DNA of 64,000 nt from an uncultured archaeon (GTDB taxonomy: Archaea; Aenigmatarchaeota; Aenigmatarchaeia; QMZP01). The notes under the pieces were generated by a model. That model saw only the letters and a list, made by a program, of their open reading frames with translations, ran no database searches and had not been told where the DNA came from. A program made the translations under genes and the position numbers. This document shows, in pieces, positions 13,094-35,809 of this stretch (the first letter of the stretch is position 1; each line of letters opens with the position of its first letter). The DNA lies in assembly GCA_964607835.1 (NCBI GenBank), contig CAZSLL010000003.1:3826-67825 (forward strand), read 5' to 3'.

Positions 13094-13302
13094 TGAGCCC
13101 GGCAGGATTCTCGTTAGCCGGAAGTTGCCCCGAGCTCAAGCGAGCGGGCAACTCCTTTTGGCTGAAGCCTTTTCCTGAAAAAGGCTTCTTTCGAACCTGC
13201 AACCCCCCGGTTTCCCCGGCAGGTGGCCTCCGAAGCTTCACCTCTCCTCACCCCCCTCGGGAGTGCAGGGAACGGGTGCTCTATCCATTAAGCCACGGGC
13301 CC
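13094..13302 (-). tRNA. intron-containing tRNA (class II-like, anticodon unresolved)
   Basis: Minus-strand read GGGCCCG-TG-GCTT-AATGGATA-GAGC ... GCAGG-TTCGAAA [82-nt intron 13107..13188] CCTGC-CGGGCTC-A; acceptor pairs with one G-U; extra about 50 nt in anticodon region plus CCGGGGAAACCGGGG variable-arm-like hairpin. Confidence 0.5.
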
Positions 13303-13358
13303 ATCGCTCCCCTTTGGGAACGCATAACCAATATTGCGGGCTTTTAAATAAATCTTGC

Positions 13359-13745
13359 TCACTCCAGGGCCCCTATTTTAACAGAATCCCCGTCCTTCAG
13401 GCCCAGCCTCTCCCTCAGGTTCTCACCTGAAACAATCTCTATCACCCCTGGCTCGTGGGTGGCCCTGTCCGGGAACACGGCAGCGCCCGGAACCCCGTTC
13501 ACAGCGCAACTGATGAGGGAGAGCCCCCCATAGGTCCTATCCCCGTCCAAAAAGCCCTCTATCCTCTCCATGGCTCTCTTTCTCAGGAAACCGGTCTCCT
13601 CTGGTGAGGCCTTCACGTTGAGGGTGCCCGGAAAGGGCTGTTCCCCAAGAACCTTCCCGAATGCCCTCCTGTAATGCGCCATCTCCACGAAAAGCTTTCC
13701 CCTGCCCATGCCTGATTCCACTTTCCCCTCAACCTTCAATGCCAT
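13359..13745 (-). CDS. ribK: CTP-dependent riboflavin kinase (archaeal RibK, DUF120)
   Basis: GKVESGMGRGKLFVEMAHY ... PFPGTLNV pattern of archaeal riboflavin kinase. Confidence 0.55.
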   Translation of the reverse strand: MALKVEGKVESGMGRGKLFVEMAHYRRAFGKVLGEQPFPGTLNVKASPEETGFLRKRAMERIEGFLDGDRTYGGLSLISCAVNGVPGAAVFPDRATHEPGVIEIVSGENLRERLGLKDGDSVKIGALE

Positions 13746-13796
13746 GCTTTATGTTGGCTGCCAAGCCTTTTATCCGGGCTAGGCCAATTATATAAC

Positions 13797-14687
13797 ATGA
13801 ACAGGGGCATGCTCTTCCTCATAATATCCGGAATCTGCCTGAGCACAATCGGCATATTCATCAAGCTCCTCGGCCCGAGCATATCCCCCTTTCTCCTGGC
13901 CTCGGTTAGAATCCTGGCCGCAGCAGGGCTCATATACCTGTTCCTGGCCTCTGAGAGGAGGACAAAGCTTCTCGAGCTGAAAGAGGGGGACCTGCACATA
14001 TTCCTCCTCGCAGGGCTGTTCGGCATAGTCTTCGGCTTCGGGTTCTACGTCAAGTCGCTCACCATGATTCCCGTGGCCAATGCGGTCTTCCTCATGTACA
14101 TATACCCGGTTGTCACGGCCATCCTGGCCAGGCTCTTCCTTGACGAGCGGATAGGCAGGTACACCATCCTGGCCCTTCTGCTCTCCCTCTCAGGAATCTA
14201 CCTCATCTACGGATACGGCGTCAACATAGTGGCACTCTCAGAGGGGAGCATGTACGCCCTCATAGCGGGCCTGGGATACTCTGTGTTCATAGTGTCCATG
14301 AGGCACATGGAGAAGAAGGGTCACTCCTACTGGGATGTTGTTTTCTGGCCCCTGGTGCTGGGCGGCCTAATGCTCCTGCCCCTCAACCTCACCTCCGGCA
14401 TAATCCTGCTGCCGTCAGCAAACATGGTCCTCCTCCTGGCAGGTGTGGTGTTCATATCCACCTTCCTGGGATACCTGTTCTACGCCCGGGGCCTCAAGAC
14501 CATCCAGGCCAAGCACGCCACCATAATAGAGAACCTGGCCGAGCCCTCTGCCGCCATATTCCTGGCCTGGCTCATACTGGGAGAACTCGTCCCTGAGTAC
14601 GTGTTCCTGGGGGGCTTCCTCATAATCCTCGCCAACCTCGTGGTCAGGCTCGACATGGGGGAAGACGAACACAGGAAAAAGATATAA
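13797..14687 (+). CDS. EamA/DMT superfamily transporter
   Basis: 296 aa, about 10 TM helices arranged as two EamA-like halves. Confidence 0.65.
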   Translation: MNRGMLFLIISGICLSTIGIFIKLLGPSISPFLLASVRILAAAGLIYLFLASERRTKLLELKEGDLHIFLLAGLFGIVFGFGFYVKSLTMIPVANAVFLMYIYPVVTAILARLFLDERIGRYTILALLLSLSGIYLIYGYGVNIVALSEGSMYALIAGLGYSVFIVSMRHMEKKGHSYWDVVFWPLVLGGLMLLPLNLTSGIILLPSANMVLLLAGVVFISTFLGYLFYARGLKTIQAKHATIIENLAEPSAAIFLAWLILGELVPEYVFLGGFLIILANLVVRLDMGEDEHRKKI

Positions 14688-14720
14688 TAGTTAGGACCCC
14701 ACTATTATCTGTGACTGCAC

Positions 14721-16763
14721 ATGCTTCTGGGAAAGATATCAGGCAGGATTACCACCAAGAGCGTATCCTTTGACGCCGACGCCAGGGTCAGGAAGCTGGA
14801 CTATGTCTCCATCAAGGACCCTGAGGGAAGGTGGATACTGGCCAACATTGACAGCGTGACCAGGTACGAGACCAAGACCAAGGTCACGGCCAGGATTGTC
14901 GGATACAGGGACTCCAGGGGCTTCCTCAAGACCCCCAAGATTCCCTTCGCCCCCAGCACGCCTGTCTTCTCAGCCCCCAAGGACTTCATACGCCAGACCC
15001 TGGGCCTGAACAGGTCAGGCGCCTACATGGGACTCCTGGAGGGCTATGACATCAGGGTCATGCTGAACACAGAGCACATGATAAGGAAGCACATATCCAT
15101 TCTGGCCAAGACCGGCGCAGGCAAATCCTACGCAGGAGGGGTCCTGCTCGAGGAGCTCGCCGAGGCAAAGATGCCTGTGGTGGTGATAGACCCCCACGGG
15201 GAGTACAAGACCCTGAGGCTCAACAACAAGAACAAGAAGGAGACCAAATACCTGGAGAGGTTTGGGGTGGAGGCCAGGAACTACAGGGACCAGGTCACGG
15301 TTTACGGGGTTTCCACGGCCAAGAGCCTTCGCCTGAACTCCAAGCTGTCGGCAGAGGAGATTTTCTCCATGCTCCCCGCCGCCCTTTCCTCCACGCAGAA
15401 GGGCCTGCTCTTCTCCTCATTGAGGAACCTTGAGGGCAAGGACTACACCATCAGGGACATAATAGATGAGGTGGCCAACGCCAACTCCCAGGCCAAATGG
15501 AACCTTGTTTCCATGCTCGAGTTCCTGGAAGGCACCAGGCTCTTCTCAGCAAACCCCACCCTTCCCAACGACCTGGTGAAGCCCGGGCAGATAACTGTGC
15601 TCGACCTCAAGGAGGAGAGACCTGAAATCCAGCAGATAGTGGCGCTCAAGATTATAGAGGACCTGTTCAGGGCAAGGAAGCATGGCAAGATTCCCTCCTT
15701 CCTTCTCATGCTCGAGGAGGCCCACAACTTCTGCCCTGAGAGGGGATTCGGCGAGGTGGCCTCCTCCAGGATAATCCGGACAGTGGCCTCAGAGGGCAGG
15801 AAGTTCGGCTTCGGCCTTTGCATGGTCACCCAGAGGCCCGCCAGGGTGGACAAGTCCGTGCTCAGCCAGTGCAACACCCAGATTATACTCAAGGTAACCA
15901 ATCCCAACGACCTCAAGGCCATTACCGATTCCGTGGAGGGGGTGACCCCGGGGCTGAGGGAGGAGATAAGGGACCTGCCAGTGGGGGTGGCCCTTGTGGT
16001 GGGGGCCACAGAGCAGCCCCTGGTGATTGACATCCGTGTCAGGCGCACCCAGCACGGGGGTGAGTCCATAGAGATAGGGGAAATCAAGGAACTCCAGGAG
16101 AAGCCCCTGGCCTTCCAGCCTCTCATCGGAAAGGGAGAGGTGAGCAAGGAGTTCAAGTCCATCAAGGACGTAAACCTGCTTCACTACCCCATGTGGAGGG
16201 TTTCCGCCCTGTTCGGCAGCACACCTGTCACCTTCTACGTGGACGGCATATCTGGCGAGCTGGTGTTCAAGAAGGATGACTCCATAGAGCGCTCCAGCGG
16301 ACTCAGGGAGCTCATGGACCTGGCACCTTCAAGCAGGATAATCATATTCTACCTCACCAAGAACAAGCTCGCAACCGCGGAGAGGATTGCCGAGGACCTC
16401 AAGATGCCCCTTAGCACAGTCCAGGGCAACGTGAGGGAACTTCTGGCCAGGGACTACCTCACCACTGACGGCTACATGTTCAGCAACAAGCTCAGGTTTG
16501 AGAACATCCCCCCCAACCCCTCAAAGGTCCAGCTCTCTGAGAAGCCCGAGAAGAGGGAACTGGAGGGAAGGAAGCTGGAGTTCATGGTCACCCAGGACTT
16601 CGTGCGCAAGGTTTCGGAGCTCTGGTCCATGCCCATACGCTCCATAGAACCCTCCTATTACCCGTACTGGCTGGTCAGACACAAGGACAGCAACGTGCTC
16701 ATAGACGGCCTGAACAGGAGCCTTGACCACGAGACCACCAGGCTAATCGCAAAGTTCATCTGA
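14721..16763 (+). CDS. DUF87/HerA-like P-loop ATPase with C-terminal winged-helix domain
   Basis: Walker A ILAKTGAGKSY, VVVIDPHGEY, Walker B LLMLEEAHNF, QRPARVDKSVLSQCNTQIILKV; C-terminal IIFYLTKNKLATAERIAEDL wHTH-like segment. Confidence 0.6.
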   Translation: MLLGKISGRITTKSVSFDADARVRKLDYVSIKDPEGRWILANIDSVTRYETKTKVTARIVGYRDSRGFLKTPKIPFAPSTPVFSAPKDFIRQTLGLNRSGAYMGLLEGYDIRVMLNTEHMIRKHISILAKTGAGKSYAGGVLLEELAEAKMPVVVIDPHGEYKTLRLNNKNKKETKYLERFGVEARNYRDQVTVYGVSTAKSLRLNSKLSAEEIFSMLPAALSSTQKGLLFSSLRNLEGKDYTIRDIIDEVANANSQAKWNLVSMLEFLEGTRLFSANPTLPNDLVKPGQITVLDLKEERPEIQQIVALKIIEDLFRARKHGKIPSFLLMLEEAHNFCPERGFGEVASSRIIRTVASEGRKFGFGLCMVTQRPARVDKSVLSQCNTQIILKVTNPNDLKAITDSVEGVTPGLREEIRDLPVGVALVVGATEQPLVIDIRVRRTQHGGESIEIGEIKELQEKPLAFQPLIGKGEVSKEFKSIKDVNLLHYPMWRVSALFGSTPVTFYVDGISGELVFKKDDSIERSSGLRELMDLAPSSRIIIFYLTKNKLATAERIAEDLKMPLSTVQGNVRELLARDYLTTDGYMFSNKLRFENIPPNPSKVQLSEKPEKRELEGRKLEFMVTQDFVRKVSELWSMPIRSIEPSYYPYWLVRHKDSNVLIDGLNRSLDHETTRLIAKFI

Positions 16764-17145
16764 ATGGCTCTATTCCCCTCAGCCTCTTGTATTCTCCTAC
16801 AATTTGCTCTGCTAGCTCTTTGCTCGTTCCGGCGTATTCCAGAAACCCCCTGAGAAAAGCCAGGGCATTCCCCTCACCTGACTTATGCTCAATCTTCTGG
16901 GTCATCAGAAAGGCGTCCCTCATGGCTTCCTCCCTCTCCATTATGTCAGGCACGCACGACTCGCATGTGCTGTAAAGCCCCCTGCTGAATTCATCATAGA
17001 GGCCGGATATCCCGTGAGAGAGATAGTGCTCGCTTAGCTGCTCTCCGATTGGGCATTCGCTGCAGTTTCCCTGATATCCTGGGTCTTTCATACCCGGACC
17101 TGGGTCAAAATATATAAAAGCACAACATTCAATTCTTATAACCAA
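16756..17145 (-). CDS. hypothetical Cys-rich protein
   Basis: 129-aa ORF with CSECP and CESCVP pairs; no family assignment. Confidence 0.3.
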   Translation of the reverse strand: MVIRIECCAFIYFDPGPGMKDPGYQGNCSECPIGEQLSEHYLSHGISGLYDEFSRGLYSTCESCVPDIMEREEAMRDAFLMTQKIEHKSGEGNALAFLRGFLEYAGTSKELAEQIVGEYKRLRGIEPFR

Positions 17146-17146
17146 T

Positions 17147-17605
17147 GCCGGTGTGGCTTAGTGGTTAAAGCGCCAGACTCATAACCAGCCTTTTTCAGGA
17201 AAAGGCTGGAGCCAAAAGGAGTTACCCACTCGCTGATGCTCGGGGTAACTTCCATGGCCCGAATCCAAGCAAACATGATGGTTATGAGTGTTGAGGATGC
17301 CTTCAGTCAGGCGGATTCGCCGTCTGCATGCACGCCAGTGCGAGCATCCGATGATAGCTGGGAAATCTGGAGATCGAGGGTTCAAATAACCCTTTTGTCC
17401 AGGATAAACGGACAAAAGCGTTTGCGGAAAGAACGCTTCCGCAACAGGTTGAGCAAAACACGTAAAGGTGTTGGAAACGTCAATCGTTTCCTGTTGCTCC
17501 CCCGCTTGCGACATGCGAGCGCTGGCCCTTCACGGCCCGAGAATCTTTGTGAAGGCCGTGCAGGCGAAGCGTCTGTAAGCGGGGTTGGGAATCCCTCCAC
17601 CGGCA
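17147..17605 (+). tRNA. tRNA-Met: tRNA-Met (CAT) with two large introns
   Basis: Exon1 17147..17184 GCCGGTG-TG-GCTT-AGTGGTTA-AAGC-G-CCAGA-CTCATAA; exon2 17366..17387 TCTGG-AGATC-GAGGG-TTCAAAT; exon3 17593..17605 CCCTC-CACCGGC-A; exons total 73 nt; introns of 181 nt (after pos 37/38) and 205 nt (in T-loop). Confidence 0.75.
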
Positions 17606-17736
17606 TTCCTAATTCTGTCCTGAATCAAAATGAAGAATAAAATCACAACGAGACTTCGGTTCTTGTGGTTACCATCATTGCCCCAGTTGGAAACTGTTTC
17701 GTGTTGCTGTGTTTTCAGGGAGGTATCAGCCTGTGC

Positions 17737-17964
17737 TTATATCTCCTTTATCTTTGAAGAGACGAAGTCCTTTATCTCCTGCTCGTCAGGGATGGCAAGG
17801 CTCTTCTTGAACCTCTTGGTCCCGTCAGGAAGGAAGAAACCCCTTGAAATCGCAATGAACTCGTTCTCGCCGTCCTCAACGACAGCCTTCTTCCTTGCGA
17901 CCTCGAGGAAGTTGTTCTTGCCGAACTTTACCTCTTCTGACTTCACGGTCTGGAATTCAACCAT
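17737..17964 (-). CDS. small nucleic-acid-binding protein (PC4/YdbC-like?)
   Basis: 75 aa, EVARKKAVVEDGENEFIAISRGFFLPDGTKRFKKSLAIP resembles PC4-like ssDNA-binding fold proteins; weak. Confidence 0.3.
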   Translation of the reverse strand: MVEFQTVKSEEVKFGKNNFLEVARKKAVVEDGENEFIAISRGFFLPDGTKRFKKSLAIPDEQEIKDFVSSKIKEI

Positions 17965-18016
17965 TGTATTACCTCCTGTGTTGGGTATGAAATGAGTATC
18001 CGGATTTGGCTTAAAT

Positions 18017-18044
18017 AGTTAACGGTTAAACCAGTTAACTGTTA
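18017..18044. promoter_or_regulatory. GTTAAC-rich palindromic repeat upstream of nucleotidyltransferase gene
   Basis: AGTTAACGGTTAAACCAGTTAACTGTTA, 65-90 nt upstream of ATG 18110; related copies at 30591..30622 and 42846..42861. Confidence 0.3.
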
Positions 18045-18109
18045 TACTATACTGATTGCCCGGATTTCCGGCGCACCCTTTTTAAATCATTCCCGCGAAA
18101 GACACACTC

Positions 18110-18856
18110 ATGAAAGCGATTGTGCTGGCGGGCGGCTACGCCAAGAGGATGTGGCCCCTCACAAAGGACAGGCCCAAGCCCCTGCTCCCGGTTGGCGGGA
18201 GGCCCATGATAGACCATGTCATGGACAGGCTCCTCAACATAGGAAGCATTGACACTGTCTACATTACAACCAACCGCAAGTTCGAAGGGGTCTTCAGCGA
18301 GTGGCTCTCGGGCAAGGAGTTCCCAATCCCCGTCAGGCTCGTGGTCGAGGACACCGCAGCGGAGGAGGAGAAGCTGGGCTCCATAGGGGCCATGAGGCAC
18401 ATCATCCAGAAGGAGGGCATAGATGATGATGTCCTCTGCATGGGAGGGGACAACCTGCTGGAGGACCACCTCAGGGACTTCGTGAGATTCTTCAGGGAGC
18501 AGGGCACCACTGTGTTCGGGCTCTGGGAGATGGACTCAGGTGACCTGTGCAAGTTCGGAATAGCCTGCCTGGACGACCAGGGGAGGGTGGTGCATTTCGA
18601 GGAGAAGCCCCCGCAGCCCAAGTCCAGATTCGTGTCCACTGCGGTTTACGCCATACCCAGGGGCGAGCTTGGGCTCATCAGCGAGTACCTCTCCGGCAAG
18701 AACAACCCCGACGCATTCGGGCACTTCATATCCTGGCTCTACTCCAGGACCCCTGTCTACGGATTCGTTTTCAGGAACAAGTGGTTTGACATAGGCTCCA
18801 TTGAGGCCTATGAGTCAGCGAACAGGCACATGCTGGACAGGCAAATCAATTCCTGA
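18110..18856 (+). CDS. sugar-phosphate nucleotidyltransferase (glucose-1-phosphate thymidylyl/uridylyltransferase-like)
   Basis: MKAIVLAGGYAKRMWPLTKDRPKPLLPVGGRPMIDHV N-terminal NTP-transferase signature. Confidence 0.7.
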   Translation: MKAIVLAGGYAKRMWPLTKDRPKPLLPVGGRPMIDHVMDRLLNIGSIDTVYITTNRKFEGVFSEWLSGKEFPIPVRLVVEDTAAEEEKLGSIGAMRHIIQKEGIDDDVLCMGGDNLLEDHLRDFVRFFREQGTTVFGLWEMDSGDLCKFGIACLDDQGRVVHFEEKPPQPKSRFVSTAVYAIPRGELGLISEYLSGKNNPDAFGHFISWLYSRTPVYGFVFRNKWFDIGSIEAYESANRHMLDRQINS

Positions 18857-20233: not shown

Positions 20234-20248
20234 AGAGAATCCCTCCCT

Positions 20249-20878: not shown

Positions 20879-20898
20879 TGCAAGAAGCCTCAATCCAA

Positions 20899-21416: not shown

Positions 21417-24400
21417 GTGGCTGACAAGAAAAATGCGGTGGCAGAAAAGAAAAAGAGAGACAGGAAGCCGCCTGAAGAGGATGAGGGAAAGAAGACCGAG
21501 ATGGTGGCAAGGCTCAAGGAGCTCCTCCACAAGAAATACCTTAAGCAGCTCAACAAGGCCGCCCTTGAGGAAAAGGCACTTGTTATAGACTTCGCCACCC
21601 TTAGCAAGTTCTCATACGAGCTGGGAGAGGCCCTGCTCAGCCAGCCTGACTTCCTCCTGGAATGCGCCAAGGAGGCAGAGGAGGCAATAGAGGGAGTGCC
21701 CGGGCCGGTTCCGGTCAGGATTATGAGCCTGCCTGAGATGACATCCATCAGGGACCTGAGGGCCAAGCACCTCGGAAGGTTCCTCTCAGTGGAGGGCACG
21801 GTCAGGAGGGCATCTGAGATAAGGCCTGAGATACAGAAGGTTCTCTGGGAGTGCCCTGAATGCGGGGACATCATAGAGGCCTACTCAGAGGTGGGCATGA
21901 TAAGGAAACCCTTTGCCTGCAACTGCGGCAACCGCACAGGGTTCATAAAGAAGCATTCAGTCCTGGTGGACACGAGGTGGGTGACCATAGAGGAGCCCTT
22001 CGAGCTCACAGAGGGTGACCGCCCCTCCCAGATAAATGTGGTCCTCAATGACGACCTTGTTTCCAGGCATGGGCGGCGCATGACAGACCCGGGGAACAGG
22101 ATAAAGGTCACCGGAATCCTGAGGGAGACTCCCAAGGGAAAGATATTCTCCTCCAAGCTCGACCTCTTCATGAGCGCTAACCACGTGGAGCCCACTGAGA
22201 TTGGCTGGCACATGCTGGACATCTCAGAGGAGGATGAGAAGGAAATCAAGAGGCTGGCAAAGGACCCCAAGATATACGACCTCCTGGTGGGCTCCCTTGC
22301 CCCAAGCCTGTACGGGCTCACTGAGATAAAGGAGAGCATAATACTCCAGCTGTTCGGCGGCGTTCCCCTGCACCTCAGGGACAAGACCCATGTCAGGGGA
22401 GACATCCACGTGCTGCTTATCGGTGACCCCGCAGCGGGAAAGTCCCAGCTCCTCAAGCTCGTCCCTGAAATAGTCCCCAGGGGCAAGTACGTGTCCGGTA
22501 AGGGGACAACAGGAGCCGGGCTGTGCACGGTCTATGACAGCCTGGTCCAGATGGAGGACGGCGGTTTTGTTAGGATTGGTGAGCTGGTGGAGAATGAGCT
22601 CAGTGGAAACTCAAAGAGTCATTCAGAGGGGATTACCGTGGCCAGCAACCCCTCCCGCAGGAAGGTACTCAGCCTCTCGGGAAGCAGCGGCAAGCTGAAA
22701 CCCATGGAAATCACCCAGTACTGGAAGATAAAGGCCCCTGGAAAGCTGGTCAGGATAACGACCAGAAGCGGAAGAGAGGTAACAGTGACCCCGGACAACC
22801 CCATACTGACCATGTGCAATGGCATTCTCGAATGGAAGAAGGCAGCACATCTCAGTGACTCTGATTACGTGGCCTCGGCGAGGGCCATTGCAAAGCCCCC
22901 TGAAAGGGATGTTCCCCTGGCTGACCTTGTCGAGGATTCTGTGCATGTGCTGGAGTCAGGGGACATAGTCAAGAGGCTTGTCCATGAGATAAGAGCCCGT
23001 GGCAGTATCAGGGAATATTCCGCAAGGTCAGGAATCAACGAAAACAGCCTTTACCATTCCTGGATAAGGAATGATGCTGTTGGAAACCCAGACATGGGCA
23101 CGCTCAGGGGAATATGCCGCGACATGGGAATGGATTACGGCGAGCTCATTCCCCCAAGGATGCGGCTCTCACAATACAAGGGCCATGAGATAATGCTTCC
23201 CAGGCACCTGAATGCAGACCTGATGTACATTGCAGGCCTTATTGCAGGGGATGGAAGCATATCAAGCACAGCTTATGGCGGAATGGACATCAAATTCTGC
23301 AGCGCTGACGAATGCCTCCTCGAGTCATTCCGCCGGCTTTGCGAGAAGCATCTGAGGGCTCCGCTAAGGGAGGAGTCCAGGGGAAGGATACCTTACATGA
23401 GGTTCAGGTCCAAGATATTCGCCAGGATACTCTCAGAGCTGGGAATACCCCACGGGAAGAAGTCGTCCAGCATCAGGGTTTCGCAGATGCTCTCGTCCCT
23501 CCCTGACAGCCTCGTCCGGGCCTATCTCCAGGGCATCTTCGACACGGATGGCAGTGTGCAGCCGCGGACATCCGGCTCCAGTGTCATTGAGCTCACCACA
23601 GCCAGCAGGGAATATGCCCGCGGAATCCAGCTCCTTCTCCTGAGGTTCGGCGTATTGTCTTCGGTAAGGGAGAGGAGGGCCACAGAATCCGTCATTCATG
23701 GCAGGACTGTCAGGTCTGGCAGGAAATGGAGCCTTGAGATAAGGGGCGAAAACACATCATCCTTCGATGGTAGTGTTGGCTTCAGGCTCGCCAGGAAGTC
23801 TGCCAGACTCGATGAGCTTATTTCCTCTTCAGGGAAGAGCAACACGAATACAGATGTTGTGCCCGGGATAGCGGGATTGCTCAGAAGGGCCAGGCTATCG
23901 GCAGGCCTCTCGGCAAAGCAGCTATACGGATACAAGAACTACACTTATGAGCGTGGTGAAAGAAGCCCTTCGCGGGTCATGCTCAAGAGAATAGCTGACA
24001 GGCTGGCTGAGCATTCCAGCGGCAGGGATGCAGAAACCCTCATGATGCTCGCCTGTTCAGATATCCTGTGGGAAAGGCCGCGAATTGGCCTCATCGACAA
24101 CAAGGAGCACGAATATGTGTATGACGTGACGGTCGAGGGGGAGCACAGCTTCATGGCCAATGGGGTGATAATCCACAACACCGCGACCGTGACCAAGGAT
24201 GAGCAGTTCATGGGAGGCTGGGTGCTCGAGGCAGGGGCCATGGTGCTTGCCAACAAGGGCATGCTCGCAGTGGACGAGTTCGAGAAGATGTCGCCAGAGG
24301 ATCAGGTGGCCATGCATGAGGGCCTTGAGCAGGGCACTGTGTCCATAGCCAAGGCCTCCATTGTGGCAACACTTCCCGCAAAGACCTCTGTGCTTGCGGG

Positions 24401-25124
24401 AGGCAACCCCAAGTTCTCCAGGTTCGACCCTTACGTGCCCATCTCAAAGCAGATAACAATCACAGACACCCTGCTCTCCAGGTTCGATCTCAAGTTCGCG
24501 ATCCAGGACAAGCCCCAGAGCGCGAGGGACAAGAGCGTGGTGGACCACGTCATAAAGACCAGGGAGGACGAGAACTTCGAGGGCGCCATGCCAAAGATAG
24601 ACCCTGCCTTCATAAGGAAGTACATAGCCTATGCCAGGGAGCACTGCGAGCCAAAGTTCAACAAGGAGGCAGGCAAGATTCTCAGGAACTTCTACATAAA
24701 GACCAGGAAGAGGTCAGAGGGCTCCGGCTCTGTGCCCATAACCATGAGGCAGTTCGAGGCCCTGCTCAGGCTCTCAGAGGCTTCTGCCAAGATTCAGCTC
24801 CAGCCCGAGGTCAGGAAGGAGGACGCCCAGAGGGCCATAAGGCTCATGAAATGCTCGCTCAAGCAGCTGGGGCTTGACCCCGAGACCGGCGAGATTGACA
24901 TAGACCGCTCTGAGGGAGGAACCCCTGCCAGCGAGAGGTCCAAGATAAGGATTGTTCTTGACATAATCGACAAGCTCTCTGAGACCAAGAAGGAGATAGC
25001 CCTGGAGGAGCTCAGGAGCGCCGCAAGGGGAGACGGCGTGGACGACGTGGACGACATCATCGAGAGGCTCAAGACCCAGGGCCTCCTCTTCGAGCCCTCC
25101 CCCGGATTCGTGCAGAAGGTTTAG
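21417..25124 (+). CDS. mcm: MCM replicative helicase (intein-containing precursor)
   Basis: Zinc finger CPECGD...CNCGN, Walker A IGDPAAGKSQLLK, GKGTTGAGL | intein | TATVTKDE...VDEFEKM arginine finger region; extein about 683 aa. Confidence 0.9.
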   Translation: MADKKNAVAEKKKRDRKPPEEDEGKKTEMVARLKELLHKKYLKQLNKAALEEKALVIDFATLSKFSYELGEALLSQPDFLLECAKEAEEAIEGVPGPVPVRIMSLPEMTSIRDLRAKHLGRFLSVEGTVRRASEIRPEIQKVLWECPECGDIIEAYSEVGMIRKPFACNCGNRTGFIKKHSVLVDTRWVTIEEPFELTEGDRPSQINVVLNDDLVSRHGRRMTDPGNRIKVTGILRETPKGKIFSSKLDLFMSANHVEPTEIGWHMLDISEEDEKEIKRLAKDPKIYDLLVGSLAPSLYGLTEIKESIILQLFGGVPLHLRDKTHVRGDIHVLLIGDPAAGKSQLLKLVPEIVPRGKYVSGKGTTGAGLCTVYDSLVQMEDGGFVRIGELVENELSGNSKSHSEGITVASNPSRRKVLSLSGSSGKLKPMEITQYWKIKAPGKLVRITTRSGREVTVTPDNPILTMCNGILEWKKAAHLSDSDYVASARAIAKPPERDVPLADLVEDSVHVLESGDIVKRLVHEIRARGSIREYSARSGINENSLYHSWIRNDAVGNPDMGTLRGICRDMGMDYGELIPPRMRLSQYKGHEIMLPRHLNADLMYIAGLIAGDGSISSTAYGGMDIKFCSADECLLESFRRLCEKHLRAPLREESRGRIPYMRFRSKIFARILSELGIPHGKKSSSIRVSQMLSSLPDSLVRAYLQGIFDTDGSVQPRTSGSSVIELTTASREYARGIQLLLLRFGVLSSVRERRATESVIHGRTVRSGRKWSLEIRGENTSSFDGSVGFRLARKSARLDELISSSGKSNTNTDVVPGIAGLLRRARLSAGLSAKQLYGYKNYTYERGERSPSRVMLKRIADRLAEHSSGRDAETLMMLACSDILWERPRIGLIDNKEHEYVYDVTVEGEHSFMANGVIIHNTATVTKDEQFMGGWVLEAGAMVLANKGMLAVDEFEKMSPEDQVAMHEGLEQGTVSIAKASIVATLPAKTSVLAGGNPKFSRFDPYVPISKQITITDTLLSRFDLKFAIQDKPQSARDKSVVDHVIKTREDENFEGAMPKIDPAFIRKYIAYAREHCEPKFNKEAGKILRNFYIKTRKRSEGSGSVPITMRQFEALLRLSEASAKIQLQPEVRKEDAQRAIRLMKCSLKQLGLDPETGEIDIDRSEGGTPASERSKIRIVLDIIDKLSETKKEIALEELRSAARGDGVDDVDDIIERLKTQGLLFEPSPGFVQKV
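22524..24179 (+). mobile_element. MCM intein with LAGLIDADG homing endonuclease domain (552 aa)
   Basis: Begins with Cys (AGL|CTVYDS), ends VIIHN|T; LAGLIDADG motifs YIAGLIAGDGSI and LQGIFDTDGSV. Confidence 0.8.
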
Positions 25125-26757: not shown

Positions 26758-26780
26758 CCACCTGGGACAATAATTAAAGG

Positions 26781-27287
26781 ATGTCCATGAAGAAAGCACA
26801 GTCTGCAATGGAATACCTGATGACATACGGATGGGCAATCCTGATCGTCATAATAGTGGCGGCGGCGCTCTATGCCCTGGGAATCTTCAATCCTGCGACA
26901 TACACCGGAAGGATACCCACGGGTTTCACGACTCTTGGCGCCCCAGAGGACTGGGATGTCAACAGCGATGGCGATGTAAGGATAATCCTGAACAACCGTC
27001 TGGCAAGCCAGATAACAGTGTACGAGATATCCGTTACCTCTGGCACCACAACTGACACCTGGGAAACAGTCGGCTGCACCGGGGCAGGGACCTACCTGAC
27101 CATAGCACCGAACGGCCAGGTTGAACCCTCGAATACAACGTGTCCGAGCTCGAATGAGGAATACGAGCTCAACGTGGGTTCCCAGACCTCAGGAACAACC
27201 TACTCCGTAGATGTCGAGATACTCTACAATTCAGGCGGCTTCAACCACACTGAATCAGGCAAGATAACGGGCACCATCAGCTCCTAA
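26781..27287 (+). CDS. archaeal type IV pilin-like protein (class III signal peptide)
   Basis: MKKAQSAMEYLMTYGWAILIVIIVAAALY class III signal/hydrophobic core; Thr/Ser/Asn-rich body with NxT/S sequons. Confidence 0.7.
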   Translation: MSMKKAQSAMEYLMTYGWAILIVIIVAAALYALGIFNPATYTGRIPTGFTTLGAPEDWDVNSDGDVRIILNNRLASQITVYEISVTSGTTTDTWETVGCTGAGTYLTIAPNGQVEPSNTTCPSSNEEYELNVGSQTSGTTYSVDVEILYNSGGFNHTESGKITGTISS

Positions 27288-30349: not shown

Positions 30350-30649
30350 GTTCCTTCCCTATCAGGTGTCACCTTGCATATTCCCTGACACCTGCATGCA
30401 TTCCTGTCCTTCCGGTTCCTCTGGAACCGGCATGCATTCCGGTGCGAATCAGGCAGCAAAACCCAACACACTCCAGTTCTGTCGGGTGCTACACGCCCGC
30501 ATATACTCCGTTGCTTACTCGATTGGGCAGAAGCAGTTCGCACAGCCCTGCCCGGCGCGGCCCTGGCCAGCCGGAAGCAGTCCTGCGCTGCAACCGGTTA
30601 ACCAGTTAACCGATTACTAACCAATATACGCAGATAGGTATTTAAAAGT

Positions 30650-30850
30650 TTTCAGTCCCGCTTGCTGTTTGGGACAATGAGTGAGGGGGGCCGGATTTCC
30701 GTTGAGCCGGAAGTTGCCCCGAACATCAGTAAGTGGGCAACTCCTTTTGGCCCACGCCTTTTCTTGAAAAGGGCGTGTTTCGAACCGACGAAGGCTTCCC
30801 ACCCAAAGACCTGACAATCAGGTGACTGCGTCACCTGCAATCACTCCTGG
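30650..30850 (-). tRNA. candidate intron-containing tRNA (boundaries and anticodon unresolved)
   Basis: Minus-strand GTCGG-TTCGAAA followed by an about 85-nt insertion sharing the intron module seen at 13107..13188 and 17185..17262, then CCGGC-CCCCCTC-A; 5' half not located. Confidence 0.3.
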
Positions 30851-31114
30851 ATACCGGGTCTCAGGGAACTGAGCCACAGGATTCCTTATCACCTCCCGGA
30901 CAATGCCCGGAATCAAATCTCAAGGCGACCTTGAGTCCTGCCCCTTTGGCCGAAACCTCTTTCAGAAGAAATTTCATCAGGAAGGAGCGTCGCTTCACCA
31001 TTTCCCGCTCACTTCCACTGATGTTCCTCTGAAACGTCTTTGACCGCTCGGGAACCCCCTCGCTTGAGAAATATACCAATCAGCACTTTAAAAGCGTTGG
31101 AAAGCAGAAAATGC

Positions 31115-31789
31115 CTACTGTATGTTGGAGAGCTCGCCCTTGATTCTCTCCATCTGGTCGTAGATGCCCTTTATGTAGTTGTCTATCTCCTCGTTGTCGC
31201 TGCTCTCCACTTCCTTTATTGAGGTGGTCCTGGAGAGCCTGGAGTCCAGCATTGTTATGACGTTGTTGAAGTCGTCCAGGGCCTTGTGGGATATGGCTAT
31301 TCCCGTGGATATCTCCTTTTCTATGTCGTTCAGCGCATCCAGGGCATCCCTGAGGTTCATGGCGTATGACTTCAGCTTCCTTATCTGCCTCACCATCTCA
31401 GCGTACTTGTCAATCTTTATGAAAACCGGCGGAGAAGATGAGACGTCAGCAGCCTCCTCTGCGGCTTCGTATGCCTCCCTGGATGCTGGTTTGGGAACTG
31501 CCTGCCTTATGTCCATGCCTGGTGCCTGCTGTTTTGGTTGCTCTTTCCTGGGCTGCGGCATGGGCGCTGGGGCTGGCTTCTGCTCAGCCTCCTTTGCGGC
31601 CTGCGGCTTCTGTTCGGGCTTCTCTTTTCCTCCCTCAACCGGAGTGGGTGCGTCAGGGATATCGTTGGCCTGCCCCTGAGGAGGAGCGGGCGCCGGAAGG
31701 TCGTCATCCGGTCCTGGTGCAGGAGGGGGAGGCATCTGGGCGGAAGAGCCCTGAACCTGCCTCTTTATGTCAGGTAAATCAGCCATCAA
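31115..31789 (-). CDS. hypothetical Pro/Gln-rich protein with C-terminal coiled coil
   Basis: 224 aa; low-complexity N-terminus (PPPAPGPDDDLPAPAPPQGQ...), conserved-looking C-terminal helical domain. Confidence 0.4.
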   Translation of the reverse strand: MMADLPDIKRQVQGSSAQMPPPPAPGPDDDLPAPAPPQGQANDIPDAPTPVEGGKEKPEQKPQAAKEAEQKPAPAPMPQPRKEQPKQQAPGMDIRQAVPKPASREAYEAAEEAADVSSSPPVFIKIDKYAEMVRQIRKLKSYAMNLRDALDALNDIEKEISTGIAISHKALDDFNNVITMLDSRLSRTTSIKEVESSDNEEIDNYIKGIYDQMERIKGELSNIQ

Positions 31790-31889
31790 ATCACTGTAAT
31801 AATAATTGTCCCAGAGGTTATAAAAGGTTTTTTCAATGCGTAGTGCATTCCTGATAGTTTAATATGTCTCCTCTGACAAGTCTATACCA

Positions 31890-32501
31890 ATGAAAGGAAA
31901 AACTCCTTTATTCGCTCTGATTGCTGTGATAGTGATTGCCAGTGGGTGCACCACAGACACGGGCTCGCAGGAAGGCACAGGCAACCTTGTCCTTAGGATA
32001 ACAGACCAGCCCAGGCTCGACCTCGAGAGAGCGGAGGTCACCATCTCTGACATCCAGGTCCACATGGCACCTGGCGAGGAGAACGGCACCCAGTCGGCTG
32101 ACTGGGAGACCATTGTGGAGGGACCTGTCACCTACGATCTTCTGGAGCTTGTTGGTGTCGAGCAACTGCTTGGGGAGAAGGAACTCCAGGCAGGCATATA
32201 CAGCCAGATAAGGCTCAGCGTGGACAGCGCTTCTGTGACCATTGGCGGAGAGGACTCTGAGCTCACCATACCATCCGGTTCTGTGAAGCTTGTCCGGGCA
32301 TTCGAGATAATCGAGGGCGAGGACACCGAGCTCACCCTTGACTTCGACGCCCATGATTCCATCCACCCTGCAGGAGCAAGCGGAAGGTACATTATGAGCC
32401 CTGTCATCCGCGTGATTGGCCCCTCGCCAGGAGACGGCCGTGACAGTGATGGCAACCAGACCCAGGACAGCGGTGACGGCCCTCTTAACCAGTCCTCGTG
32501 A
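31890..32501 (+). CDS. DUF4382-like lipoprotein
   Basis: Signal plus lipobox-like IASGC; LVLRITDQP ... YDLLEL ... AGIYSQIRLSV ... IPSGSVKL ... LTLDFDAHDSI ... YIMSPVIRV follows the DUF4382 pattern. Confidence 0.5.
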   Translation: MKGKTPLFALIAVIVIASGCTTDTGSQEGTGNLVLRITDQPRLDLERAEVTISDIQVHMAPGEENGTQSADWETIVEGPVTYDLLELVGVEQLLGEKELQAGIYSQIRLSVDSASVTIGGEDSELTIPSGSVKLVRAFEIIEGEDTELTLDFDAHDSIHPAGASGRYIMSPVIRVIGPSPGDGRDSDGNQTQDSGDGPLNQSS

Positions 32502-32608
32502 GCCCTGTCAGGTCTCCTGCATAATGGCGCGTCCCTTCGGAATGAGTCTTCTGACGAGCTCAAGCTAATGCAGCTGGCCTGAAATAAATAAAAAAAGGGG
32601 CTGTGCCC

Positions 32609-33229
32609 CTATTTGTAGAAACCCAGTCCTGCTGAGACAGGAGAAAGGTACTGCATCCCGTGCAGCCCCGCGCAGGGGTCATTCTCCACCTGCTGTATTA
32701 TGGCGAATGCTCCCCATATTGAATGTCCAATCTCCTCTCCATCAGCCGTATGCCATGTTCCTTCATCCAATACAGCGTCATCAGGAACGGCCACAATCTT
32801 CACGAAGTAGTTCCATTTACATGTCTTTCCGTCCTGCTCGTACTCGCCGCTCTGGTGGTTGGTAAGCCAGGCACCTGAGCCTATATAGCTGTCATGGCCA
32901 TAATGTCTGTCCAGCAGACCGTCGCCGTCGCAGTCCTTGTTCGATATCCACGCATCGTTCCATTTCATGCTAAGCTTTACGTTTTTATATGGCTGGCACC
33001 ATTCTGCATCCCTGTACGAGTCGCAATAGTATCCGTTGAACAGGTGCGCCTGGTAGTTGTAACCCCATTCATCAAATCCAGTCTCTATGACAGAGCCGTC
33101 GCTTGCCAGGAGCTCGCCGCTCTGTATGGTAGTGCATTGCTGACCCTTGCCGTTCCCGTTTGGCGCGGCCATGGATATGCCCACCAGGAACAGGACAGAC
33201 AGCAACCCAGCAAAAATCTCCTTTCTCAT
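32609..33229 (-). CDS. hypothetical secreted protein
   Basis: Start at MRKEIFAGLLSVLFLVGISMA signal peptide, internal Met of listed ORF; Cys/Trp/Asp-rich body. Confidence 0.45.
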   Translation of the reverse strand: MRKEIFAGLLSVLFLVGISMAAPNGNGKGQQCTTIQSGELLASDGSVIETGFDEWGYNYQAHLFNGYYCDSYRDAEWCQPYKNVKLSMKWNDAWISNKDCDGDGLLDRHYGHDSYIGSGAWLTNHQSGEYEQDGKTCKWNYFVKIVAVPDDAVLDEGTWHTADGEEIGHSIWGAFAIIQQVENDPCAGLHGMQYLSPVSAGLGFYK

Positions 33230-33407
33230 TTCAACACCTCTTCTGTTGAACGTTGCAGAATTTGTGGATTTTTTCTTGCCGGGCCGGAATAAAAAACTTT
33301 CCCAAACCACGGCACGGAGCAATTACGATACATTTGATTCTGCTGTTCTCCGATTCTGGACAAAGCTCAGTGAGTTCCTGATCATGCCCATGGTCGCCTT
33401 ATCAGAT

Positions 33408-33962
33408 TCAGGGTGGGGGCTGAAAACCACTACCCTTCCGCGTCCATAGCCCGAGCAGGCCACTGCACATGAGCCGTTCCCGAATAATACCAAAGACCGG
33501 ACATTGCTCCCGGGAATTAGCCTCGGGCCCCAGCCATAGGGGACCCGAATATTTCCCTGATACCCCCCGAGTCACGGGGTGGATTCCTTTGACACACAAA
33601 ATAACCGACCTTTCTTTCTTCATGGCTTCAGGGGCATATCTGCACTCAATGTCTATGAGCCCAATTCCCTCAGGAAGATTTTCCGGAATCTTCTTGCTTG
33701 CAAGCAGGGCGCCTGCGCTTATGCCTATATAGCCTCCACCCTTTGAAACGAACTCCCTTATCTTATCAAAAGATTTCCCGAGGTCATGAAAAACCCTTTG
33801 TGTGTGCCCTCCTGGTATTATGATAGCCTGGTACTCGTCCAGCCTGTCCCTGAAATCCTGCTGGTCTATGAGATTGTAACCTATGCCCATATTATCCAGC
33901 GCATCGCCAACCTTAAAGTGGCTGGTCTCCGGCCCTGAATAGAGAGCTATAGTATTTTCCAT
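33408..33962 (-). CDS. class I glutamine amidotransferase-like fold protein
   Basis: YQAIIIPGGHT ... SKGGGYIGISAGALLAS nucleophile-elbow-like arrangement. Confidence 0.4.
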   Translation of the reverse strand: MENTIALYSGPETSHFKVGDALDNMGIGYNLIDQQDFRDRLDEYQAIIIPGGHTQRVFHDLGKSFDKIREFVSKGGGYIGISAGALLASKKIPENLPEGIGLIDIECRYAPEAMKKERSVILCVKGIHPVTRGVSGKYSGPLWLGPEANSREQCPVFGIIRERLMCSGLLGLWTRKGSGFQPPP

Positions 33963-34000
33963 GATTTAGATTCCTGGCTATTTGTTAAAAAGAAATGGGA

Positions 34001-34198
34001 TGCGCCGAGCGGGATTCCCGTACTCCTTTGCGCGCTTTAATGCGCAAAAGGGTTCATTCGAACCCGCGTCACAGGCTTGGAAGGCTTATCCCAATCACCG
34101 CCCCTGCCTTTGCCTCCGTTCCATCTGGAACGGTATTGGCGGATGGGGCTCAGGATTTCCAAGTGACTGTCTGGATCCTGCCACTAGACTATCGGCGC
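34001..34198 (-). tRNA. candidate intron-containing tRNA (anticodon unresolved)
   Basis: Minus-strand GCGCCGA-TA-GTCT-AGTGG at 5' end and GCGGG-TTCGAAT [42-nt intron GAACCCTTTTGCGCATTAAAGCGCGCAAAGGAGTACGGGAAT] CCCGC-TCGGCGC-A at 3' end; acceptor stems complementary. Confidence 0.4.
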
Positions 34199-34266
34199 AT
34201 TCATTCGAAAGAGTGTGGCATTGCTATGATTATTGCCCCATATCTATTTATATTTGGCTTGCGGGC

Positions 34267-34809
34267 TCAGAAATCGAAGCTTATCTCCTGATGGTCAGGG
34301 CTCCTGGGCTTTCTCTCCTCTTCCTTGACTGCCTCTTCTGCGGACTCCTCTGGCTCAGGCTCCTCTTTTGGGGGCTCGGTCCTGGTCTGGGGGATGCTCC
34401 CGGAAATCTTCTTTGCCATTGCATCCAGGGCAGGCTCCTCCTGCTTCCTGACCGGGAAAACGCTCTCCAGGCCCATTCCCCTCTCAGCCTCTGTCCTGGG
34501 TATAACGTGGAAATGCACGTGCGGGACGACCTGGCCTGCCATCTGGCCGTTGCTCTGGGATATTGATATGCCCTTGGCCCCCGTGGCCTTCTGCACCCCT
34601 ATGGCCACCTTCCGGATGGCCTTCATGAGCTCTGCTGCCTGCTCCTCCCCTATGGAGAGTATGTCCTGGGCGTGCTCTCTGGGTATGACCAGTGTGTGCC
34701 CCGGGTTCCTGGGGTTGATGTCCAGGAAGGCAAAGCTGTGTGAGTCCTCGTAAACCTTCTTGGATGGAATCTCGCCTGCGGCTATCCTGCAGAATATGCA
34801 CTCGTCCAT
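34267..34809 (-). CDS. HIT family protein (histidine triad) with acidic C-terminal tail
   Basis: CIFCRI ... HVHFHVIPR histidine triad. Confidence 0.75.
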   Translation of the reverse strand: MDECIFCRIAAGEIPSKKVYEDSHSFAFLDINPRNPGHTLVIPREHAQDILSIGEEQAAELMKAIRKVAIGVQKATGAKGISISQSNGQMAGQVVPHVHFHVIPRTEAERGMGLESVFPVRKQEEPALDAMAKKISGSIPQTRTEPPKEEPEPEESAEEAVKEEERKPRSPDHQEISFDF

Positions 34810-34813
34810 GCCA

Positions 34814-35248
34814 TCACTTTGGAATCTTGGACTTAATCTTTTTAACTATTTTCCCCTTCTCTGCGTCAGAGACCCTTTTTATGGGCAGGATGCCCTCTAT
34901 GCTCACGGGGTCCTCGTTGGCGAACCTTGGGATTATGTGGAAATGGATGTGCCTTATGAGCTGGCCCGCAGATGAGCCGCTGCTCTGCGCAAGGGTGACG
35001 CCGTCCGCTGTGGTCCCTTCCACAATGCCTTTGGACACCTTCCTCACGGCCTCGAACAGGGGCCCGGCCTCCTTTTTGGGGAGGTCGAATATGTCCTCGT
35101 AGTGCTTGTTGGTGACCACCACGGTGTGCCCCGGGTTCCTGGGGTTGATGTCCAGGAAGGCAGTGGCGTGTTTGTCCTGGTAGACCTTCCAGGCCTTTAT
35201 CTTGCCCTTCACTATGTCGCAGAATATGCACCCTTCCTTGCTCTCCAT
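34814..35248 (-). CDS. HIT family protein (paralogue)
   Basis: CIFCDI ... HIHFHIIPR; tandem to previous HIT gene. Confidence 0.75.
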   Translation of the reverse strand: MESKEGCIFCDIVKGKIKAWKVYQDKHATAFLDINPRNPGHTVVVTNKHYEDIFDLPKKEAGPLFEAVRKVSKGIVEGTTADGVTLAQSSGSSAGQLIRHIHFHIIPRFANEDPVSIEGILPIKRVSDAEKGKIVKKIKSKIPK

Positions 35249-35439
35249 GATGAATCCCTTTGTATTGATTATTGCCTCGCCGGGTTTAAATATCCTGCCG
35301 GGGAACCTCTAAACCATTTATATACCTGCTCCCTATCTCATTCTATCAGTGGGGCCGTGGCGTGAAGCCTTTACGGGAGCTTGCGCTTCCACAAAGGTTT
35401 CATCCAAATGGTCATGTCCCCACGATGTAACAATGCGAT

Positions 35440-35635
35440 GGGGCCGTGGTGTAGCTTGGTCTAGCATTGCGGCTTTGGGCATCCTGTCCGGAAAGAATAA
35501 AAGCATTCGCCGGATGGAATAAAAAGAGCCGTTGACCCCGGTTCAAATGAACCCTTTAGCACAGGTAAACGCGCTAAAGCGTTCGCGGAAAGACCGCTCC
35601 CGCAAAGGCGCGGTTCCGGAGTCCGGGCGGCCCCA
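35440..35635 (+). tRNA. intron-containing tRNA, probably tRNA-Pro (TGG)
   Basis: GGGGCCG-TG-GTGT ... GCGGC-TTTGGGC anticodon loop candidate; CCCGG-TTCAAAT [74-nt T-loop intron 35549..35622] CCGGG-CGGCCCC-A; further extra sequence near anticodon stem. Confidence 0.45.
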
Positions 35636-35644
35636 TCAGAAAAA

Positions 35645-35809
35645 GCCTCGGTAGCTCAGTTGGTACCACCCGGCCCAGGCCGGAAGGCAGCAAAGAGCGA
35701 TCGCCTCGTATGACCCTTTGGCAACTGTGAACGTGCCAAACCGTCAACGGAAACAACGCTTCCGCAAGGGGAGAGCGATAGGTCGAGAGTTCAAACCTCT
35801 CCCGGGGCT
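35645..35809 (+). tRNA. tRNA-Thr: tRNA-Thr (CGT) with D-loop and anticodon-loop introns
   Basis: GCCTCGG-TA-GCTC-AGTTGGTA [29-nt intron 35666..35694] GAGC-G-ATCGC-CTCGTAT [63-nt intron 35712..35774] GCGAT-AGGTC-GAGAG-TTCAAAC-CTCTC-CCGGGGC-T; exons total 73 nt. Confidence 0.6.

Follow-up and report, generated by a model that had tools for sequence, protein, structure and literature searches.

Two structured RNA cassettes recurring in the introns of split archaeal tRNA genes: a probable case of spread among structurally equivalent sites

In a 64-kb stretch of DNA from an uncultured archaeon (hereafter the window), the introns of six split tRNA genes carry copies of two structured sequences, which we call module 1 and module 2. 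Both are probably homologous cassettes lodged in bulge-helix-bulge (BHB) introns, and would have been spreading among structurally equivalent sites in the manner of a selfish family. The mobility in this reading is deduced from the distribution of the copies, and the BHB geometry and hairpins are computed. The organism itself is probably a DPANN archaeon resembling the Aenigmatarchaeota, as judged from its closest named homologue: the nearest named relative of the IMP dehydrogenase encoded in the window comes from a Ca. Aenigmarchaeota metagenome-assembled genome (MAG), at 74% identity. This does not place it in the order Thermoproteales, and a module-1 locus retrieved from elsewhere (L003) is titled Ca. 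Aenigmatarchaeota.

Two modules in the introns of six tRNA genes

Module 1 consists of a first hairpin with the distal stem CCUUUU/AAAAGG, a linker CCAAAAGGAG, and a second hairpin closed by GGAG/CUUCC. Its core, GCCAAAAGGAGTTRCCC, occurs three times in the window against 0.02 occurrences expected by chance, and a repeat finder returned 13116-13197 and 30705-30786 as direct copies with 83% identity, both of them inverted relative to 17174-17253 (83%). We built a covariance model of the module, R1, in which the structure was supplied by hand and the sequences were re-aligned with the model. R1 collects 47 non-redundant copies at E<1e-5 from the window and 30 other loci. In this alignment 94% of the cells are paired and 13 of the 20 base pairs show compensatory changes, a level that none of 500 shuffles and no slid register approached. 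Hairpin 1 is 98.7% paired, and the closing segment of hairpin 2, GGAG/CUUCC, is invariant down to its G.U pair; G.U pairs in the hairpins imply selection on the RNA of the sense strand. RNAalifold run on a MAFFT alignment missed hairpin 1, because shifts in the T-runs had misaligned it. Other identities were considered and rejected: a hammerhead or other ribozyme (the CUGAUG of the hairpin-2 loop is not conserved and Rfam is silent), an ordinary kink-turn within module 1 (K-turn; the tandem G.A pairs are absent), and a Shine-Dalgarno sequence with a small open reading frame (ORF; the spacing to any ATG is wrong).

The window holds three strong copies of module 1. One lies in the 59/60 intron of tRNA-Arg (13117..13189, minus strand; R1 78 bits, E 4e-16; repeat families D7, I2 and I3), where the predicted minimum-energy fold is a three-way junction in which the two hairpins meet the T-stem/H helix (z = -3.0). 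A second takes up the first 73 nt, at the 5' end, of tRNA-Met intron 1 (17184..17256, plus strand; 81 bits), and a third forms the T-loop intron of tRNA-Leu (30706..30778, minus strand; 72.7 bits). A degenerate, module-1-like sequence in the D-loop intron of tRNA-Leu gives a weak match (30951..31019, plus strand; 27.4 bits, E 7e-4) and lies antisense to the tRNA. With this single exception, all copies of modules 1 and 2 in the window are in the sense orientation with respect to their host tRNA.

Module 2 comprises a hairpin with a GGUAAAC loop followed by CGGAAAGAACGCUUCCGCAA. Its core, CGGAAAGAACGCTTCCGCAA, is found three times when up to three mismatches are allowed, against 0.00 expected, and the repeat finder picked up the corresponding repeats at 17391-17444, 35552-35605 and 35714-35767. 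The module-2 covariance model, R2, yields 14 good matches; compensatory changes affect six of the nine pairs of hairpin 1, the second helix is nearly invariant, and the covariation support therefore concerns hairpin 1 only. R2 also weakly matches two module-1 loci (17 bits). On the plus strand, module 2 occupies the first ~60 nt, at the 5' end, of the T-loop intron of tRNA-Met, intron 2 (17387..17447; 85 bits over 17383-17455; repeat family D5), most of the 59/60 intron of tRNA-Pro (35548-35621; 82.5 bits) and most of the 37/38 intron of tRNA-Thr (35711-35773; 62.7 bits). A short version limited to hairpin 1 lies on the minus strand in the T-loop intron of tRNA-Gly (34015-34056; 37 bits over 34009-34059). 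The weak R2 matches at module-1 loci hint that the two modules may be distantly related.

The host genes escape standard detection: in the unspliced window ARAGORN finds no tRNA, and Rfam none at gathering thresholds or at E<=1. Gene models were established by hand parsing and small scripts, and the spliced sequences were then submitted to ARAGORN. This gave six tRNA genes with 15 introns (Arg-TCG, Met-CAT, Leu-CAA, Gly-TCC, Pro-TGG and Thr-CGT), and ARAGORN accepts all six spliced sequences as cloverleaf tRNAs. As expected of archaeal BHB introns, removal of the inserts restores the canonical cloverleaf. A heuristic scan for acceptor stems and T-arms revealed no further tRNA in the window.

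tRNA-Arg(TCG) (13094..13302, minus strand; exons 13302-13273, 13236-13230, 13211-13190 and 13107-13094), recognised by ARAGORN as tRNA-Arg(tcg), is interrupted at 30/31 (13272-13237, 36 nt), 37/38 (13229-13212, 18 nt) and 59/60 (13189-13108, 82 nt); its central exon was located by searching exhaustively for segments able to form a valid anticodon arm. The elongator tRNA-Met(CAT) (17147..17605, plus strand; exons 17147-17183, 17365-17386 and 17592-17605) contains the two longest introns, 17184-17364 (181 nt, 37/38) and 17387-17591 (205 nt, 59/60). The ~145 nt of the latter that lie 3' of module 2 have no match in the fetched loci. tRNA-Leu(CAA) (30682..31061, minus strand), whose 5' acceptor strand was located by complementarity, is probably a four-intron gene, with introns in the D-loop (31039-30946, ~94 nt), at 37/38 (30929-30883, 47 nt), in the variable arm (~30867-30796, 64-72 nt) and at 59/60 (30778-30696, 83 nt). 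For the variable-arm intron the 5' site can be placed in more than one way, and three alternative spliced versions are all valid tRNA-Leu(caa) for ARAGORN. tRNA-Gly(TCC) (34001..34198, minus strand; exons 34198-34171, 34085-34057 and 34014-34001) is split at 29/30 (34170-34086, 85 nt) and 59/60 (34056-34015, 42 nt). tRNA-Pro(TGG) (35440..35635, plus strand; exons 35440-35479, 35527-35547 and 35622-35635) is split at 37/38 (35480-35526, 47 nt) and 59/60 (35548-35621, 74 nt), and its neighbour tRNA-Thr(CGT) (35645..35809, plus strand; exons 35645-35664, 35694-35710 and 35774-35809) in the D-loop (35665-35693, 29 nt) and at 37/38 (35711-35773, 63 nt).

We scored each junction pair for a 4-bp central helix between exon nucleotides -5 to -2 and intron nucleotides -6 to -3, with a 3-nt bulge on either side and the cut placed behind the second bulge nucleotide. 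All four base pairs form in nine of the 15 junction pairs with boundaries that leave the mature sequence unchanged; these nine include all three in tRNA-Arg, both in tRNA-Met (h = 5), both in tRNA-Gly and, with boundaries shifted by -1, the D-loop intron of tRNA-Thr. Leu introns 1 and 3 join them after boundary shifts of 1-10 nt that still produce valid tRNAs, which brings the total to 11 of 15. Three pairs, among them the 37/38 introns of tRNA-Pro and tRNA-Thr, form three of the four base pairs, and Pro intron 2 fits a relaxed motif only. By our own calculation a random junction pair would form a complete helix in about 2% of cases. At 59/60 the outer helix is provided by the T-stem, and T54-57 supply the exon side of the central helix, so that this site corresponds in position to 37/38 of the anticodon arm and the same cassette can occupy either.

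The original prediction, made from the letters of the window, had the two modules recurring in its tRNA genes, and both the repeat finder and the core counts above chance agree. It had also read the related introns, found in different tRNA genes and sites, as the outcome of gain or transposition, which fits all the evidence given here and below (the hosts, the turnover in tRNA-Gln, the tRNA-Met orthologues, the 94% identical copies). Its individual placements mostly hold, with adjusted boundaries. The T-loop intron seen in a tRNA at 13107..13188 does contain module 1, and the gene proves to be Arg-TCG with three introns, the relevant one being 13108-13189; the recurrence at 30705..30790 is genuine, and its host, which had been left unparsed, is tRNA-Leu-CAA with a T-loop intron at 30696-30778. 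Module 2 was rightly assigned to a T-loop intron at 35549..35622, now that of tRNA-Pro-TGG, and to tRNA-Met intron 2, although that intron is not 17388..17460: it runs for 205 nt and the module is its first ~60 nt. The proposed shorter relative of module 2 is the hairpin-1-only copy in tRNA-Gly-TCC. The copy that makes up the canonical 37/38 intron of tRNA-Thr-CGT had not been listed.

Copies beyond the window

When species-representative genomes were scanned with an exact pattern, module 1 turned up in three archaeal MAGs (one is titled Ca. Aenigmatarchaeota), at loci with no other nucleotide-level similarity to the window. A looser pattern applied to metagenomes retrieved 50 loci, of which ~32 hold genuine module-1 copies, that is, copies including hairpin 1. 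These loci, cited below by L numbers, were sampled by sequence pattern rather than by a whole-genome census, and copy counts refer to the window plus these loci. The metagenome pattern required CCAAAAGGAG and CUUCC, so that the invariance of CCAAAAGGAG in the sample is partly there by construction. Two loci, L010 and L029, are syntenic with the window at 76-84% nucleotide identity. Three pattern matches in the viral collection IMG/VR are ascribed to chance because they lack hairpin 1, which leaves no genuine module copy in IMG/VR, and phage and plasmid collections gave no module match. Searches of the window and 20 loci against the 4227 families of Rfam 15 gave no module match at gathering thresholds and chance-level matches only under permissive settings, as did a permissive search of the tRNA-Met gene. 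Neither module was found described in the literature searched, the coverage of which was incomplete.

Contexts of the 47 module-1 copies were assigned by reading their flanks; deletion of single introns followed by ARAGORN, over 82,872 variants, recovered few of the host tRNAs, since most of these genes are interrupted more than once. Seventeen copies sit in a T-loop, in sense orientation directly after GGTTCRA, with a matching 3' strand of the T-stem downstream for 14 of them. Eleven follow an anticodon loop and four lie in a D-loop, all in sense. Thus 32 of 47 copies (68%) are sense copies within tRNA introns, and in these hairpin 1 begins 1-4 nt after the 5' splice site. One further copy is antisense within a T-loop intron (L050 134-281), head to head with a sense copy (antisense 134-202); three adjoin a tRNA gene with a second copy of its 5' end in front of it (L012, L017 and L002); and 11 lie elsewhere, several of them starting on a stop codon or immediately behind one. 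Scanning for BHB motifs around the intergenic copies was uninformative, as ~600 position pairs per copy produce many chance matches. Over the window and about 30 loci, the modules are hosted by at least ten tRNA species (Arg, Leu, Met, Pro, Thr, Gly, Gln, Glu, Val and Ile) at sites 59/60, 37/38 and in the D-loop. A copy of module 2 was also seen outside any intron, in the 3' trailer that immediately follows a tRNA gene (L030 523-595, minus strand).

One module-1 copy is found within another structured-RNA gene. In L042 an archaeal RNase P RNA gene (7402-7781; Rfam 50.6 bits, E 4e-13, below the gathering score) is interrupted in its P3 region by a ~100-nt insert that contains the module (7448-7517). 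CTCA and TGAG at the ends of this insert form a perfect 4-bp BHB helix, and the insert is possibly a BHB intron of RNase P RNA.

Some copies are flanked by direct repeats of their target. In L012 (3060-3168) and L017 (4150-4270) these repeats are 16 and 14 nt of the tRNA 5' end, and in L044 (175-310) an imperfect repeat of ~26 nt around the module corresponds to the last codons and stop of a convergent gene; at all three loci the interrupted gene is intact on one side. Repeat lengths vary (7, 10, 14, 16 and ~26 nt), many copies have none, and no terminal inverted repeats were seen. Target-site duplication was considered as the origin of T-loop introns and rejected: their 3' ends are complementary to the exon and are not repeats of it.

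Comparison of orthologues reveals a turnover of modules. The tRNA-Gln genes of L005, L025 and L052 all bear module 1 in the D-loop and differ at the two other sites. L005 has a plain 41-nt intron at 37/38 and module 1 at 59/60; in L025 the 5' end of the L005-type intron carries an inserted module 2, and 59/60 holds module 2 as well; L052 has module 1 at 37/38 and module 2 at 59/60. Likewise, the tRNA-Met genes of L010 and L029 show the same splicing pattern as the window gene and have intron 1 in common with it, including module 1 and a guide element described below, and their T-loop intron is an unrelated 40-nt sequence. For each copy in the window the closest relative lies in another genome, sometimes in another tRNA. 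The tRNA-Leu copy shares 94% identity across 69 nt with a T-loop intron found in the tRNA-Thr(TGT) of L001 and L034, and the tRNA-Met copy shares 94% identity across 68 nt with one in L002, from a genome of 37% GC; nothing else can be aligned between the window and the L001 or L002 genomes.

A putative guide in tRNA-Met and other features of the window

Inspection of the sequence shows a second element in intron 1 of tRNA-Met, downstream of module 1, which resembles a box C'/D' K-turn guide (17275..17356, plus strand). It is composed of a guide segment GGTTATGAGT (17280-17289), a D'-like TTGA (17291-17294), a stem GGATGC/GCATCC (17295-17300 and 17344-17349) and a C'-like (G)ATGATA (17350-17356). 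The guide segment is perfectly complementary to nucleotides 31-38 of tRNA-Met plus two intron nucleotides, and C34 pairs with the guide nucleotide five positions upstream of the D'-like TTGA. The element is kept in L010 and L029; in L010 the stem reads GGAC/GTCC, and one U-A pair is compensated. One K-turn is recognisable, no convincing terminal pair of boxes C and D was seen in the element, and Rfam gives no match to a C/D family. In archaea, 2'-O-methylation of C34 in tRNA-Met (Cm34) is guided by box C/D ribonucleoproteins, according to PMC6601510, which cites Joardar 2011. The element probably directs this modification in cis. Like the box C/D guide in the intron of archaeal tRNA-Trp and like sR-tMet (PMC4090602; PMC6601510), it combines a C'/D'-type K-turn with the target C34 at the fifth position upstream of D'; it differs from them in its single K-turn, in a spacer of ~9 nt and in the location of the guide within its substrate's own intron. 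The guide is an add-on to module 1 and belongs to neither module.

The surroundings of these tRNA genes differ among the syntenic loci. Where the window (13094-13745) has tRNA-Arg and a small ORF upstream of an EamA transporter gene, L029 has an IS1595-family DDE transposase gene (1402-2187, minus strand), and the orientation of tRNA-Met relative to the neighbouring ORF is inverted in L010 and L029 as compared with the window. Several further features of the window were noted. A full-length match to archaeal signal recognition particle RNA (49234-49579, plus strand) scores 55.4 bits against a gathering threshold of 96.5 and is either divergent or enlarged by insertions. An MCM helicase gene (21417-25124, plus strand) contains an intein with a LAGLIDADG endonuclease domain (~22520-24180), a segment absent in L010. 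A stretch of low GC content (45994-47493, minus strand; 45% against ~55%) encodes an AAA_14/DUF4143 ATPase and may have been acquired horizontally. Inverted repeats at 26765-27238 and 57580-58008 (295 nt at 74% identity, and 75 nt) reflect paralogous small ORFs (26781-27287, plus strand; 57528-57992, minus strand) without a Pfam match, and direct repeats within 61325-62662 stem from a CDC48-type ATPase, of which they represent the two AAA domains.

Origin of the cassettes and relation to known systems

In the scenario that we favour, a pre-tRNA would be transcribed together with its introns. At each junction four exon nucleotides would pair with four intron nucleotides, the 3-nt bulge on either side would hold a splice site, and the T-arm junction at 59/60 would mimic the canonical geometry of the anticodon arm at 37/38. 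The archaeal splicing endonuclease would then cut both bulges and an RtcB-type ligase would join the exons; cleavage by archaeal EndA and ligation by RtcB are established steps. Each cassette would fold on itself directly after the 5' splice site, so that the ends of the intron would stay free to form the BHB motif even in introns of 80-205 nt. Cassettes would be exchanged between existing introns or inserted into them, as a pool common to the genomes of one archaeal lineage. A copy could move as DNA or as RNA and we favour neither route; intergenic copies, antisense copies and flanking duplications speak for DNA.

Several observations weigh against this scenario. About one third of the copies (type B) have a pyrimidine-rich inner hairpin 2 that hardly pairs, and the covariation counts are taken from model-fitted alignments. 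Exon boundaries are deduced, with an ambiguity of 1-10 nt at Leu introns 1 and 3, and Pro intron 2 fits a relaxed BHB only. The conserved single-stranded CCAAAAGGAG and CGGAAAGAACGCU are left unexplained by a purely structural or selfish role; a functional role of these motifs is possible and compatible with mobility. Finally, the original prediction had named modules lying mostly outside tRNA genes, or lacking co-orientation with them, as the result that would speak against an intron family. Part of this is observed: 11 of the 47 module-1 copies lie outside recognisable tRNA genes and one or two are antisense, which means that the cassette is not strictly an intron element, and the large majority, 32 of 47, are co-oriented copies within tRNA introns.

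The conserved motifs lend some credit to another explanation, doubtful in our view, in which the modules are selected functional RNA domains, such as a binding site for a processing or splicing factor, which would make them intron "splicing enhancers", or a stable circular intron RNA acting in trans, and not spreading selfish sequences. It would account for blocks that remain invariant across genomes of 36-58% GC (the distal stem and loop of module-1 hairpin 1, and module-2 CGGAAAGAACGCU), for the fixed position beside the 5' splice site and the fixed sense orientation, and for the conserved G.U pair; and tRNA-Met intron 1, with its credible K-turn Cm34 guide, indicates that introns of this lineage can host functional RNAs. 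However, orthologous introns may lack a module or carry the other one, so that no module is needed at any given site. Copies outside tRNA genes, the high variability of hairpin 2 and the failure of all 4227 Rfam families to match (0/4227) also argue against such a function, as does the separation of the K-turn guide from both modules. The small RNAs that the original prediction had proposed as an alternative, hosted in the introns, would be represented by one extra element, the C'/D'-like guide of tRNA-Met intron 1, and not by the modules themselves.

A second alternative, which we consider improbable, makes the modules a DNA element akin to miniature inverted-repeat transposable elements (MITEs) or repetitive extragenic palindromic (REP) sequences, inserting throughout the genome, its tRNA copies surviving because their ends happen to form a spliceable BHB. 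The 11 copies outside tRNA genes, several at or just after a stop codon, are what one would expect of such an element, as are the antisense copies (L050 134-202; window 30951-31019), the three copies with long target repeats (14 nt in L017, 16 nt in L012, ~26 nt in L044) and the appearance of module 2, in L025 as compared with L005, as an insertion into a pre-existing intron. But tRNA introns make up far less than 1% of the genome and hold 68% of the copies, an enrichment that random insertion followed by survival cannot give. The copies within tRNA introns are moreover nearly all in sense, 1-4 nt after the 5' splice site, and the G.U pairs point to selection on one RNA strand. No terminal inverted repeats were found and the length of the duplications is inconsistent (7-26 nt, with many copies having none). 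No associated transposase or other enzyme gene was found, and no phage, plasmid or IMG/VR match that would suggest a vector.

A third explanation, vertical inheritance of introns from an ancestral tRNA gene followed by duplication and divergence, is already contradicted and can hardly be maintained: the retention of module and site by some orthologues (tRNA-Met intron 1 in the window and L010/L029) is not specific to it, and against it stand hosts that are unrelated isoacceptors, from Arg and Leu to Val and Ile, differing positions (D-loop, 37/38 and 59/60), introns far more alike (83-94%) than their exons, and close orthologues that differ in module content.

The closest parallel to spreading cassettes comes from the Thermoproteales, in which similar introns were reported in unrelated tRNAs, at canonical and non-canonical sites, and read as the result of transposition by a mechanism given as unknown (Fujishima 2010, as relayed in PMC4090602 and PMC4033280). 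Both systems combine similar introns in different tRNAs and positions, genes with several introns and an unexplained mode of spread. Here, however, the host is an Aenigmatarchaeota-like DPANN archaeon and not a crenarchaeon, the shared unit is a defined two-hairpin cassette with covariation support, and copies are common to many genomes and occur also outside tRNA genes, including in RNase P RNA. The modules probably represent the Thermoproteales type of "intron transposition" in a lineage new to it, and their large, structured cassettes are themselves new and have no counterpart in Rfam.

Size is a further difference. According to PMC4090602, archaeal tRNA introns measure 11-129 nt with medians of 12-25 nt, whereas the cassette-bearing introns described here span 42-205 nt; the 181- and 205-nt introns of tRNA-Met lie beyond the 129 nt reported as the maximum and so extend the known range. 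Introns per gene are probably also more numerous than known before, with four in tRNA-Leu against a maximum of three given in PMC4033280. The case also explains why the tRNAs of such genomes escape standard tools, which bears on estimates of MAG completeness and on the biology of DPANN lineages, for which more frequent tRNA disruption and undetected tRNAs have been noted (PMC5829648). Reviews describe the way in which introns come to occupy so many positions of archaeal tRNA genes as unknown (PMC4090602). Here intron gain becomes testable by comparative genomics and simple biochemistry, given alignable cassettes, orthologous introns with and without an insertion, copies beyond the tRNA genes, some of them with duplicated flanks, and one within RNase P RNA.

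Another point of comparison is Caldiarchaeum subterraneum (PMC3293823), where a tRNA 5' fragment and a mobile element lie beside a tRNA-Thr gene that gained an intron, the insert measuring 1.8 kb and encoding a recombinase. L012, L017 and L002 present the same succession of a duplicated tRNA 5' piece, an insert and the whole tRNA. Their insert differs in consisting of the ~75-nt module only, without an enzyme gene.

Introner elements are transposon-derived spliceosomal introns of algae and fungi, in which a repeated family supplies near-identical introns and also occurs outside genes. The present system differs from them in relying on a protein endonuclease and BHB motifs instead of the spliceosome and in residing in structured-RNA genes instead of mRNAs, and its transposition is deduced. 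We tentatively suggest, while rating it below an even chance, that module 1 and perhaps module 2 may be an archaeal counterpart of introners, inserting in structured-RNA genes, occasionally elsewhere, and tolerated through BHB excision. Where an insertion duplicated a target containing a 4-nt palindrome, the two copies of the repeat could pair as the central helix of a BHB motif, and excision from the RNA would restore the original sequence exactly. This geometry fits three copies, with the palindromes AGCT (L017), ACGT (L044) and CATG (L042). If correct, such an introner-like route would explain in concrete mechanistic terms the "intron transposition" seen in archaeal tRNA genes.

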